Virus genome (UHGV): UHGV-1747927
Direction: 5' to 3' (one strand)
Origin: a virus
DNA: 10,821 nt
Part shown: positions 3,650 to 9,108 of the stretch, piece after piece
Layout of the letters: every line of letters starts with the position of its first letter
Position numbering within the stretch: position 1 is the stretch's first letter
The notes under the pieces: model-generated
Database searches by the model: none
Seen by the model: only the letters and a program-made list of their open reading frames with translations
What the model was told of the DNA's origin: nothing
Translations under genes and position numbers: made by a program

Positions 3650-5026
3650 TCATACGTCCGCCCCTTGTGCATATCGTCTGCCACGCGCAGCAGGTGCATT
3701 TGATGCTGTGCAAATCTGTCTGGCTTCATCCTGGTCACATGCAACAAAGTGTCCGTTGCAGAACCGCTGGTAAACCGTACCAAGTGAGCCAAAACGGTTT
3801 TTCGTCACGATGATTTCAGCAAATGGCGCGGCGCTACTGTTCTCGTCATATACCGCTTCCCGATAGAGCATGATGATTGAGTCTGCGTCCTGTTCAATGC
3901 TTCCTGAATCACGCAAATCTGCGTTTGTCGGGCGTTTGTTTGGTCGCTTCTCAACATCGCGCGAAAGCTGACTCAGGGAGATAACAGGCGTTTTCAGGTC
4001 TTTCGCCATCGCCTTCAGGCTTCCGGAGATGTGAGCAATTGCGAGGTCGTTGCGATCTGCTTTCGGCTTCTCAATCAGGCCAAGATAATCCGCCATGATG
4101 AGTGACAGGTTTGGATTTTCCTGTTTGTGCCGTTCTGCGATTGAGCGTATTTCTTCGACCGATAACCGCGAGGCATCGACTACCCATACATCCAAATCTG
4201 CAAGCTGACTCATGCCGTTAGCAACACGCGCCCAGCCTTCGTCATCCATCGATGCAGGATTTCGCAGTACGCTAACCGACATCCTCCCGGCGTTGGCAAT
4301 GCTTCGCTCTGCAATCTGCAATGCGCTCATTTCCATCGAGAAAATCAATACCCCGCGCCGGACGTCAGAACCAGGAATAACGCGGCTTGCAACGCCTTCG
4401 GCAATCTTCAGAGCCAGTTCGGTTTTCCCCATACCAGGACGAGCAGCGATTATCACCAGGTCTTCCGCGTTCATCCCTCCGGTGATGGCATCAAGTTCTT
4501 CGATTCCGGTCTTCAGGGTATCTGACTCTTCTCCGTTCCTCAGACGCCTGTCAAGCGTGTCAGTGTAGTCGGTGATGATTTCCCCTAACCGTACCGGTTT
4601 AACCTCGTCACGGGGCTTTCTGATGGCTGAAAGACGCTTTACAAGCTCATCCATCGCCTGACTCGATGCGTCGATGGTTCCGCTCTGAATTGGTTCACGC
4701 ATTTCATCCATGATTTCCAGCACCAGACGGCGGTGATAGTTATCCGCGACCATTCCGGCATATCCCTTCAGGTTTGCGGCACTCGGGCAGTTTTTGCTGG
4801 TCATCAGGATTGACGTGAAATGCTCCTCTCCGCACGCCTCGGCAACCATCAGCGCGTCGATTAGGTTTCTGTTTCTCGCCTGCTTGCGGATAACCTCGAA
4901 GGCTTTCCGGTAGAGCGGAATTGAAAACGCTTCCGGCTCCAGCGTTGCCAGAACGTCGCTGGCGGTTGGTGTTAATCCACCAATCAGCAGGCCACCGATA
5001 ACGCTCGCTTCGATATCCTGTCTCAT
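3650..5026 (-). CDS. DnaB-family replicative DNA helicase (458 aa)
   Basis: N-terminal DnaB-like motif (EASVIGGLL); Walker A (AARPGMGKT); and the DnaB C-terminal motifs [38 protein letters not shown]. The start overlaps the O stop (ATGA). Confidence 0.9.
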
Positions 5027-5844
5027 GCAATCCCCCTGTCTGCAAACTTCCCTTCCCGTACTCCAGTTAACGAATCTTCCCTCAGCAGGTAATCAAAATC
5101 AGCTGTCCAGCCCGTGTCGTTGTCTCCGAAGTAAAACGGCTTGGCCTGATGCACAAACGCCCTGACATACGCTCTGAAACCGTCCACGTTTGGCGTTTTC
5201 AGTTGCGGGATGATTTTCTTCAGGCGGCGTTTGCGTTTCTCGTTGACCGCAACAGCGTGTGGCAGTCTGTCACCGACTTCGGTGTTGTAGGCGTTCAGGA
5301 AGGATTCGTAGTCGATTCGTTCTGCCTTGCGACGTTCAGGTTTAACCTGCCCATCACCGCCCCCGTTAGGGGGTAAGGGGGTATTTGTATTTATTGTCTT
5401 TTGTATATTGTCTTTTGTGTTTAGCTGACTTGGCTTATACCCATTAGCCGACTTGGCTAATGTTTTATTAGCTGTTTTAGCTAATGTTAAGCTGTCCTGG
5501 CTAATCCACTGAGAAACCACCTTGTTCACTCCGATTTTCACGCCATCAGCAATGAGGAATTTACGCTCGATAAGCTGGCGCTTGGCAGCGCAAACATGAG
5601 TGTGATGAATACCTGTCATGGCTGCTATCTGCGTGTTTGTGAGTCGATCCATCGGCTTATTGAATCCGTATGTCTTGCGCATGATAGCGAGCATCACCTT
5701 CAACTGCCGGACGGTTAAATCAGCCATCAGCAGACTGTCGGTAATCTCGTTAGCAACGCGCATGAAACCATCTTCGGTATCTGCCACGCGATGCTCCACG
5801 ACCTCCAGTTGAGGCCTGTAATCAGCTAACTTAACGACGCCCAT
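5023..5844 (-). CDS. O: Lambda O-like replication initiator (273 aa)
   Basis: The N-terminal domain ([39 protein letters not shown]) closely resembles lambda O as recalled. The iterons and AT-rich tract lie inside the gene, as in lambda ori. Confidence 0.85.
5381..5505. repeat. Replication origin: four about 17-bp iterons with internal dyad symmetry plus an adjacent AT-rich tract, inside the O gene
   Basis: Iterons TTAGCTGACTTGGCTTA (5421-5437), TTAGCCGACTTGGCTAA (5444-5460), TTAGCTGTTTTAGCTAA (5468-5484) and TTAAGCTGTCCTGGCTAA (5488-5505) are spaced 20-24 bp apart. The AT-rich tract at 5381-5420 contains ATTGTCTTTTGT direct repeats. Confidence 0.6.
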
Positions 5845-6756: not shown

Positions 6757-7473
<717 letters not shown>

Positions 7474-7504: not shown

Positions 7505-7846
7505 ATGACACAATTTCAACTTGCATTAATCGCTAGAGAAGTTGATGGAGAAGTCATCCATCTTCGCACCAAAGACGGATACATCAATGCCACCGCGATG
7601 TGCAAGTCTGCGGGGAAGCTACTTGCTGACTATACACGACTAAAAACAACACAAGATTTTTTTGATGAATTATCACGCGATATGGGGATTCCCATATCGG
7701 AGTTAATTCAATCATTTAAAGGCGGAAGAGCAGAGAATCAAGGGACTTGGGTTCATCCAGACATCGCAATTAATTTAGCTCAGTGGCTATCTCCAAAATT
7801 TGCAGTGCAAGTATCGAGATGGGTGCGTGAGTGGATGTCAGGTTAA
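7505..7846 (+). CDS. KilA-N domain protein (113 aa) in the rexAB position
   Basis: KilA-N/Bro-N-like motifs (INATAMCKSAGK, GTWVHPDIAINLAQWLSPKFAVQVSRWV). AGGA lies 6 nt upstream of the ATG. It starts 31 nt after the cI stop on the same strand. Confidence 0.7.
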   Translation: MTQFQLALIAREVDGEVIHLRTKDGYINATAMCKSAGKLLADYTRLKTTQDFFDELSRDMGIPISELIQSFKGGRAENQGTWVHPDIAINLAQWLSPKFAVQVSRWVREWMSG

Positions 7847-7885
7847 AGAGCGCCTGCCGAACTCCCTATCCACCTTAAGCGGTAT

Positions 7886-8264
7886 ATGACAAACCGAGGC
7901 AGAGTTCCTCATACGCACTTTTCTATGCTTAATGAACTGACGTTTAACTTGGTTGCGCCACTTGAACAGGCCGGATATACGCTGCCAGAAAAAATGGTCC
8001 CTGATATTTCAGAGGGTAGGGTTTTCTCGCAATGGCTCCGTGACAACCGGGGGGTTGAGCCGAAGACATTCCCAACATATAACCATGAGTACCCAGATGG
8101 CCGGACATTCCCGGTACGTCTATACCCAAACGAATATTGCAGATTTCAAACAATACTTCAACGAAGTGTGGCTGCCTCAGTACGCTCCTAAATATTTTGC
8201 TGAACGAGACCAAAGGGCATTGACGTTGATTGAGAAAATCATGCTACCTGACCTTGATTCCTAA
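7886..8264 (+). pseudogene. Downstream ORF with apparent +1 frameshift (frames 7886-8191 and 7953-8264), in frame with KilA-N across a single TAA
   Basis: The 7886 frame looks protein-like up to about 8130 (...RTFPVRLYPNEY). The +1 frame looks protein-like only from about 8130 (ADFKQYFNEVWLPQYAPKYFAERDQRALTLIEKIMLPDLDS) and ends 8 nt before a terminator. The 7886 frame is the KilA-N frame and only one stop (7844-7846) separates them. Confidence 0.4.
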
Positions 8265-8272
8265 ATGTTATT

Positions 8273-8299
8273 CCCGGCCACAGAGCCGGGTTTTCTTTG
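8273..8299 (+). terminator. Intrinsic terminator ending the cI-KilA-N transcription unit
   Basis: CCCGGC, loop CACAGA, GCCGGG, followed by TTTTCTTTG. It lies directly after the stop at 8262-8264. Confidence 0.6.
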
Positions 8300-8335
8300 C
8301 CTCACGATCCCCCTCACCCAAGAACACATAACCAA

Positions 8336-8365
8336 TTGTATCTATTTGAAAATAAATAGATACAA
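8336..8365. repeat. Perfect 12-bp-arm palindrome with 6-nt spacer (TTGTATCTATTT GAAAAT AAATAGATACAA)
   Basis: Read directly from the sequence. It lies in the AT-rich intergenic region between the terminator and OL3. Confidence 0.5.
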
Positions 8366-8450
8366 CTCACTAAACATAGCAGTTCAGATCTCTCACCTAC
8401 CAAACAATGCACCCCTGCAAAAAATAAATTCATATAAAAAACATACAGAT

Positions 8451-8513
8451 AACCATCTGCGGTGATGAATTATCTCTAGCGGTGTTGACATAAATACCAC
8501 TGGCGGTGATACT
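8451..8513 (+). promoter_or_regulatory. pL promoter with OL3-OL2-OL1 operators
   Basis: OL3 is AACCATCTGCGGTGATG (8451-8467), OL2 TATCTCTAGCGGTGTTG (8471-8487), OL1 TACCACTGGCGGTGATA (8495-8511). -35 TTGACA (8485-8490), 17-bp spacer, -10 GATACT (8508-8513). Nearly identical to lambda pL as recalled. Confidence 0.85.
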
Positions 8514-8581
8514 AAACACATCAGCAGGACGCACTACTCACCAGGGCGGTGAATATACAACGATTCAAATATGAATCTACG

Positions 8582-8596
8582 GCGCTGACAAAGCGC
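8582..8596 (+). promoter_or_regulatory. nutL boxB hairpin GCGCU-GACAA-AGCGC
   Basis: A 5-bp GC-rich stem with GACAA pentaloop about 60 nt downstream of the pL start. The same loop occurs in the nutR boxB. It matches the P22 boxB-left sequence as I recall it. No clear boxA was seen upstream. Confidence 0.5.
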
Positions 8597-8724: not shown

Positions 8725-9108
8725 ATGACACGCAGAACTCAGTTCAAAGGCAATTCACGTTCTCGTCGTCGTGAGCGTTTAAAGGCAAAGGCATTAGCTA
8801 ACGGCGTACTGGCCCGCGAAGAAGCAATAAGTTCAGAAGTATTACACCGCCCTACTCTAAGCAGAGCGCAGATTCAGGCTAAAGGTACTCACGAAACGCC
8901 TGAGCGCATAGAAGACGCTAAGCCAATTAAGTTCATGGCACAGGACGTGATCTGGCAACAGAAAGAATACAGACGCAATCTGGAGAGAGCGGCCATTGTG
9001 TACGCGAATGAGTTTGGACATAAGCAACCAGAAACTGGTGTATGTCTTCCAAATGTAGCTCTTTACGCAGCAGGATACCGGAAATCAAAACAACTGACGG
9101 CGAGATGA
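8725..9108 (+). CDS. N: N-like transcription antiterminator N1 (128 aa from the Shine-Dalgarno-supported ATG)
   Basis: First gene after pL and nutL. AGGAGG lies 6 nt upstream of the ATG at 8725. The N-terminal arginine-rich motif (KGNSRSRRRERLKAKALANG) resembles the P22-type ARM as recalled. The track start at 8623 would lie inside the leader stem and lacks a Shine-Dalgarno. Confidence 0.7.
   Translation: MTRRTQFKGNSRSRRRERLKAKALANGVLAREEAISSEVLHRPTLSRAQIQAKGTHETPERIEDAKPIKFMAQDVIWQQKEYRRNLERAAIVYANEFGHKQPETGVCLPNVALYAAGYRKSKQLTAR

Follow-up and report, generated by a model that had tools for sequence, protein, structure and literature searches.

A conserved, usually imperfect inverted repeat behind the repressor-operon terminator of lambdoid phages, possibly an RNA stem-loop of a back-up Rho-type stop

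The locus and its palindrome

We analyzed a 10,821-nt stretch of the viral genome UHGV-1747927 (the whole of which we call the window), a lambdoid prophage with lambda immunity whose orientation is reversed relative to the lambda map. The repressor gene cI lies at 6760-7473 (Pfam domains HTH_3 and Peptidase_S24), and a disrupted defense gene of the BstA family, with a KilA-N domain at its N terminus (Pfam KilA-N, E=1.7e-27), occupies positions 7505-8264 of the + strand. In PhiR5_2 the homologue of this gene is intact, encodes a 253-aa member of an abortive-infection family, and is matched by PADLOC as BstA (E=2.5e-20); the copy in the window is a pseudogene, with a GAA-to-TAA change at 7844-7846 and a 2-nt deletion near 8137, and it ends with a TAA at 8262-8264. 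A t_imm-type intrinsic terminator of the cI operon (8273-8298, + strand), reported by a terminator scan and composed of the stem-loop CCCGGCCACAGAGCCGGG (8273-8290) and TTTTCTTT (8291-8298), is homologous to the annotated Timm of HK544 and tM of 933W. Homology to annotated lambda and HK544 operators places OL3 at 8451-8467, OL2 at 8471-8487, and OL1 at 8495-8511, all on the + strand, and a promoter scan together with operator homology places pL on the same strand (−35 at 8485-8490, −10 at 8508-8513), with a start at ~8520 taken from the annotated HK544 pL start. Further on are the window's own nutL, with a boxB-like GCGCTGACAAAGCGC at 8582-8596, and an N gene of the 933W/H-19B type (8725-9108), found by domain search. 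The phage is thereby a mosaic, in which the cI gene and operators of lambda are joined to an N gene and nutL of the 933W/H-19B type; OL3 ends in G (8467) where lambda has A, and OL2 carries A (8478) where lambda has G, the A being the majority base among the sampled lambda-immunity copies.

Between the terminator and OL3, beginning 72 nt downstream of the bstA stop codon and spanning −184 to −155 relative to the pL start, lies the palindrome that is the subject of this work (8336-8365, + strand). The original prediction had described it as two perfect 12-bp arms around a 6-nt spacer, located between the cI-operon terminator and OL3 and more perfect than chance structure, and each of these points is borne out. 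The arms TTGTATCTATTT (8336-8347) and AAATAGATACAA (8354-8365), of 12 nt each, are 100% complementary and enclose the loop or spacer GAAAAT (8348-8353). Among all inverted repeats in the window with a spacer of at most 12 nt, this is the longest perfect one, the runners-up having 9-nt arms, and dinucleotide-preserving shuffles of the window reached 12-nt arms in 2 of 300 cases. As + strand RNA, the palindrome has a folding energy of −11.6 kcal/mol (z = −6.8), and as − strand RNA one of −14.8 kcal/mol (z = −5.5); each value was matched by none of 200 shuffles. The stem holds two G-C pairs here (G8338-C8363 and C8342-G8359) and one in most relatives. To the right of the palindrome, the + strand reads CUCACUAAAC, and the − strand continues past it with UUGGUUAUGUGUU, which is U-rich and interrupted. 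We rejected an intrinsic terminator on either strand, as the stem has fewer than three G-C pairs, a U-tract is lacking, and the terminator scan did not report the site.

The t_imm-OL3 stretch is among the most closely studied DNA in biology, yet the curated records examined (lambda J02459, 933W, and HK544) carry no annotation at the position of the palindrome, and we found no publication on the site in the searchable literature. A second palindrome, CGATATGGGGATTCCCATATCG (7678-7699; 9-nt arms, 4-nt spacer), lies within the KilA-N coding part of the bstA pseudogene; since BstA proteins have cognate DNA elements in their own locus, it may merit attention of its own.

A block shared across immunity types

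A BLAST search of phage genomes matched window positions ~8273-8394 to lambda and to the heteroimmune phages 933W, Stx2-86, BP-4795, 2B8, ev017, WGPS6, and Stx2-II, the heteroimmune matches having upstream genes and downstream operators unrelated to those of the window. The matching sequence is a noncoding block of ~120 bp that starts with the t_imm hairpin and its T-run, goes on through a C-rich spacer whose last bases are ACACATAACCAA, and then contains the inverted repeat followed by CTCACTAAAC..GCAATTC.GATCTC. With a search anchor placed solely to the left of the palindrome, we collected 208 copies of the block from three sequence collections; the motif ACATAACCA, which is part of this anchor, is also invariant in the BLAST-derived alignment. 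In these sampled lambdoid copies, lambda included, the block lies between the repressor-operon terminator and the pL operators. The t_imm stem that forms its left edge (8273-8290, + strand) is nearly invariant among 16 block variants, with five of its seven pairs never varying. The spacer that follows the terminator (8299-8335, + strand) is C-rich and G-poor (17 C and 3 G in 37 nt) and near-invariant at its end, and the right flank CTCACTAAACATAGCAGTTCAGATCTCTC (8366-8394, + strand) closes the block, homology with heteroimmune phages stopping just after it in the alignments. Within this flank, CTAAAC (8370-8375) and GATC (8387-8390) are invariant in a 13-sequence alignment; a further GATC in the spacer (8306-8309) occurs in most, not all, variants. 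The OL/pL unit (8451-8513) is outside the block. The RNAalifold consensus of the block contains two helices only, t_imm and the palindrome hairpin, the remainder being unstructured, and a small open reading frame in the block finds no support, the indels not being multiples of three.

By BLAST, the 400-nt sequences preceding the terminator form at least 26 mutually unrelated clusters, with annotated genes that include rexB, stk, hicAB, a DUF1828 gene, and several hypothetical genes, and the right-hand boundary of the block is constant beside at least four unrelated operator regions. Since, in addition, the same palindrome alleles occur beside lambda-type and non-lambda operators, the block is a mosaic unit of its own. 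Conservation in related prophages had been put forward as a check on the original prediction, and the position is indeed occupied in lambda, in Stx phages, and across the 208 sampled copies; the palindrome is real, non-random, and conserved. Among the copies are 17 matches from the genome collection, most of which carry the lambda-length anchor (45 nt) and belong to assemblies from unrelated organisms, among them Paenibacillus, Shewanella, Desulfovibrio, Kitasatospora, and Pseudomonas, several lying on contigs of ~48.4-48.5 kb (among L133-L148). Most of these matches are almost certainly lambda control-DNA contamination of the assemblies, and the host range from that collection is therefore uninformative.

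The perfection of the repeat is not what is conserved. The palindrome position carries 29 variants among the 208 copies, and the perfect 12/12 form is a minority found in 12 of them. The commonest alleles, that of lambda included, have T opposite G at arm position 7 and a mismatched closing pair, so that the lambda allele TTGTATTTATTGAAAAATAAATAGATACAA has 10 Watson-Crick pairs, one T/G, and one mismatch. The window allele equals an allele present in three copies, TTGTATTTATTTGAAAATAAATAGATACAA, plus a single T-to-C change at 8342 (arm position 7), and it is this C, pairing with G8359, that makes the repeat perfect; in RNA, G-C would thereby take the place of the usual G.U, in an allele whose closing pair was U-A beforehand. 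The perfect palindrome is an allele-specific detail of a family-wide imperfect hairpin. Across the copies the arms are better conserved than the loop. In 24 of the 208 copies, all of the 933W lineage (L002, L007, L012, and about 20 other loci of 933W-type phages), a 12-nt deletion has taken out the loop together with the beginning (5' side) of the right arm and left the rest of the block in place; the 933W-type allele folds into a hairpin on neither strand, which makes it a natural hairpin-less allele. In three metagenome copies (among L150-L208), ACATAACCA marks the exact end of homology, with unrelated sequence in place of the palindrome, which makes the left edge of the repeat a mosaic junction there.

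RNA stem, relic, or DNA site

Pair counts over the 19 distinct ungapped alleles set the two strands apart. Read as + strand RNA, 93.0% of the cells are paired, and seven pairs vary on one side yet stay paired through G.U; read as − strand RNA, 80.7% are paired, and seven pairs depart solely by breaking. In the allele table, six positions within A-U pairs show A-to-G transitions and no such position shows T-to-C, the sole T-to-C being that of the window, which converts U.G to C-G at a pair where one lineage has U-A. The folds of individual relatives point the same way: the lambda allele gives −8.9 (z −4.3) on the + strand versus −7.2 (z −1.7) on the − strand, the 2B8 allele −7.8 (z −2.6) versus −1.9 (z +1.3), and the ev017 allele z scores of −3.2 and +0.3. 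The bidirectional RNA hairpin that had been suggested holds for the window allele only, whereas across relatives just the + strand hairpin is kept. The substitution pattern is as expected from selection on a + strand RNA stem, for which it provides thin evidence: the bias amounts to ~7 substitution events, with a one-sided p of roughly 0.04-0.06 by binomial count, and could reflect chance or strand-biased mutation. A/G versus T/C polymorphism stands at 8:3 in the arms and 9:16 in the flanks, a comparison confounded by base composition. Compensatory covariation was not detected in the stem, where no change on both sides was seen except at the closing pair and the shuffle controls were not exceeded.

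It is possible, although in our view doubtful, that the inverted repeat is an AT-rich relic with no selected function, carried along by the conservation of the surrounding block, which would be kept for the function of t_imm or because its homology links modules in recombination, and that the perfect form of the repeat here is the chance product of one or two point changes. A relic would account for the rarity of the perfect allele (12 of 208), the imperfection of most others, the absence of half of the repeat in 24 of 208 copies, and the missing covariation, and the three metagenome copies do lose homology at the left edge of the palindrome, as in a mosaic junction. Identity between lambda and the window is, moreover, no higher in the block (~92%) than in the neighboring cI (~95%), so that strong purifying selection is not evident. 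It is harder to see why a relic should have arms that are better conserved than its loop, substitutions that are strongly one-sided in favor of + strand pairing, a right-hand block boundary kept beside at least four unrelated operator regions, and a C-rich composition retained even where the sequence differs. Were the repeat functionless, the perfect palindrome would be an ordinary allele of an imperfect repeat and no operator for the neighboring gene.

We consider it unlikely that the palindrome acts as DNA, that is, as an AT-rich dyad, ~170 bp upstream of pL, through which a bound host protein of the IHF, Fis, or H-NS type, or a bound dimeric regulator, would affect pL or the looping between OL and OR. 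Conservation across immunity types would suit a host factor better than a phage repressor. The half-sites, however, lack symmetry at arm positions 7/24 and 12/19 in the majority alleles, additional pairs of the repeat are broken as DNA in several lineages, and one arm is missing from the 933W lineage; the changes that have accumulated spare RNA pairing, not dyad symmetry. Nor is the position fixed: from the palindrome center to the −35 element of pL, 61 lambda-immunity copies show seven spacings (133-140 bp), so that helical phase is not preserved and an architecture phased to pL can be rejected, and the distance to t_imm varies as well (28-36 nt). Additional half-sites are found at chance level, with 3 matches in the window against 1.0 expected, a number reached by 12 of 200 shuffles; the lambda-type left arm TTGTATTTATTG recurs once, at 5385-5396, inside a − strand open reading frame (5023-5844). 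A generic dimeric regulator, one of the binders originally suggested, is thus weakly supported at best, and a + strand RNA stem is a better fit than a dyad recognized as DNA by a dimeric protein. Named candidates fared no better. The half-sites resemble LexA half-sites (CTGTAT) on inspection, but they are 18, not 4, nt apart; by eye, we saw no convincing match to a DnaA box, to the CRP, IHF, or Fis consensus, or to a lambda Int arm-type site, the last of which would also be unsuited to phages with different integrases. An operator-type site is disfavored by the asymmetry of the half-sites in most relatives, the unfixed position and phase, and the lack of a promoter in the block.

Still less probable, and in our judgment very unlikely, is a − strand promoter formed by TTGTAT (8365-8360) and TACAAT (8340-8335), from which a short transcript, perhaps a small RNA, would end at the reverse face of t_imm. 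TACAAT, the complement of 8335-8340, does fall in the best-conserved part of the block and reads TATAAT in ev017, but some lineages have TACAAA or TACATT instead, the hexamers are 19 bp apart, the wrong spacing, and the scan found no promoter scoring at least 9/12 on either strand in the block. Likewise, the U-rich run that can be read after the reversed t_imm in lambda is not conserved, owing to the differing upstream cargo, and the − strand hairpin is not preserved. A known small RNA was rejected, too: no Rfam 15 covariance model matched anywhere in the window at E <= 1, and known prophage small RNAs map to the late region, with Pas, AgvB, and AsxR lying in the Q/lysis region.

The adjacent KilA-N protein, which had been named as a conceivable binder, can be dismissed, a role for the palindrome as its operator or immunity site being effectively refuted by the distribution of the element: adjacency and the DNA-binding propensity of its kind (KilA-N domains are putative DNA binders, and BstA has a cognate DNA element, aba [PMC8585504]) are set against an element that stands behind at least 26 unrelated cargos, lambda rexB among them, and so is not specific to the KilA-N gene, and against a bstA gene that is broken here. 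The 63-bp element aba overlaps the start codon of bstA, carries direct repeats of CCCGCC at its ends, and has a specificity that goes with the individual BstA variant (PMC8585504), all of which is unlike the palindrome, where no CCCGCC repeats were found.

A candidate Rho-type stop and its known counterparts

The palindrome hairpin sits in a region whose composition resembles that of Rho loading sites. The C-rich, G-poor spacer on its left is matched by a segment of the same kind directly on its 3' side (8366-8425, + strand; 20 C and 5 G in 60 nt), which we propose as a downstream rut half, and the 150 nt from 8293 contain 42 C and 11 G, placing them in the top 0.1% of windows on both strands. 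This composition outlasts the sequence itself. All 36 spacer variants have 11-19 C versus 1-4 G despite changes in sequence and in length (28-36 nt), the latter including a poly-C length polymorphism (window 8299-8335; L013-L208), and the equivalent 60 nt downstream of the hairpin average 21 C and 6 G in 39 distinct relatives, non-homologous sequence included. On the + strand, the transcript strand, an uninterrupted C>G bubble extends over 8216-8507 (215 windows, area ~3200 %.bp, maximum skew 23%, rank 5 of 214), well beyond 78 nt; it contains [(YC)N9-13] x4 and x6 motifs, those listed lying at 8247-8315, and 29 YC dimers fall within 8291-8520. All tested templates with a bubble of >78 bp or an area of >700 %.bp terminated with Rho in vitro (PMC6144790). 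C>G bubbles are common in genomes, however, at about 2.2 per kb (PMC6144790), and such rut-like criteria are consequently of low specificity. Rho-dependent 3' ends of Escherichia coli generally lie just after a stable stem-loop that lacks a U-tract, with a rut site immediately downstream (PMC6061677), and the palindrome provides such a stem-loop (−11.6 kcal/mol, z −6.8) with 60 rut-like nucleotides directly downstream.

We therefore favor, tentatively and as a reading that the present data make possible rather than probable, the idea that the palindrome is a + strand RNA stem-loop in the read-through trailer behind t_imm and part of a back-up Rho-type stop that shields pL, nutL, and N. Since the cI operon is transcribed in the + sense, read-through of t_imm is the sole obvious source of the hairpin RNA. 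RNA polymerases that start at pRM, pRE, or their equivalents and escape t_imm would transcribe a C-rich, G-poor tract that, lying after the TAA at 8262-8264 and after t_imm, is presumably untranslated, and that the hairpin would divide into an upstream rut half (8299-8335) and a downstream one (8366-8425). Rho could load on this tract and halt transcription before it passes pL and nutL into N. In lambda tR1, boxB separates rutA from rutB. The palindrome hairpin may take the part of boxB in this arrangement, and/or it may serve as the protective or pause stem-loop, free of a U-tract, that is typical of Rho-dependent 3' ends. We infer this read-through, the action of Rho, and any phenotype they might have from the features of the locus, and some of these features speak against a Rho-type stop. 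The hairpin-less 933W lineage keeps the rest of the block, which means that the hairpin is dispensable at least there; covariation is absent, and the strand bias rests on ~7 events. Also, t_imm looks strong, so few transcripts may reach the hairpin.

A broader and more doubtful extension of this proposal concerns the whole ~120-nt block, which might be an unannotated composite insulator, t_imm followed by a hairpin-split Rho loading region, common to lambdoid phages of many immunity types. Whatever the immunity type or cargo, it would separate the lysogenic from the early-lytic unit, stop lysogenic read-through before nutL and N, and contribute to lysogen stability. Rho is known to silence toxic prophage genes (reviewed in PMC12360218). 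A back-up Rho-type stop, if real, would explain how strong transcription from pRE and pRM is excluded from the pL-N unit, would give lysogen stability in lambda and the Shiga-toxin phages a further layer that depends on a host factor, and would account for the free exchange of defense or cargo genes (rexAB, bstA, stk, hicAB, and others) on the upstream side of a boundary that is itself constant. The insulator, if confirmed, would be a previously unrecognized component of the lambda genetic switch.

Several known systems bear comparison with the palindrome. The aba element is likewise short, noncoding DNA, associated with a bstA locus that neighbors the repressor gene of a prophage, but it is located at the start of bstA, whereas the palindrome is found beyond the terminator, whatever the cargo gene. 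With lambda tR1, the region has in common two C-rich, G-poor, unstructured RNA segments that are split by a short hairpin in an untranslated lambdoid regulatory region. The two differ in that the palindrome comes without boxA or an N-binding boxB, in that the boxB of tR1 is a 5-bp GC stem with a GAAAA pentaloop and the palindrome an AU-rich stem of 11-12 bp, and in that tR1 follows a translated gene, whereas the candidate Rho region described here follows an intrinsic terminator. We rejected the palindrome as an N-type boxB, its loop being GAAAAU on an AU stem, boxA being absent, and the phage having a boxB in its own nutL. The stem-loops at Rho-dependent 3' ends of E. coli (Dar and Sorek 2018; PMC6061677) are similar in being stable, in lacking a U-tract, and in having a C-rich, rut-like region directly downstream; at the palindrome, in contrast, most transcripts would already have the protection of the intrinsic terminator's own hairpin, 45 nt further upstream. 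Finally, the palindrome shares its block and strand with the t_imm/tM terminators and lies 45 nt further on, so that the pair resembles a tandem stop, although the palindrome, with its one or two G-C pairs and no U-tract on the + strand, falls outside the definition of an intrinsic terminator. The palindrome is most plausibly an RNA stem-loop in a terminator or insulator region, an element of a known kind in an unannotated but widely shared block.
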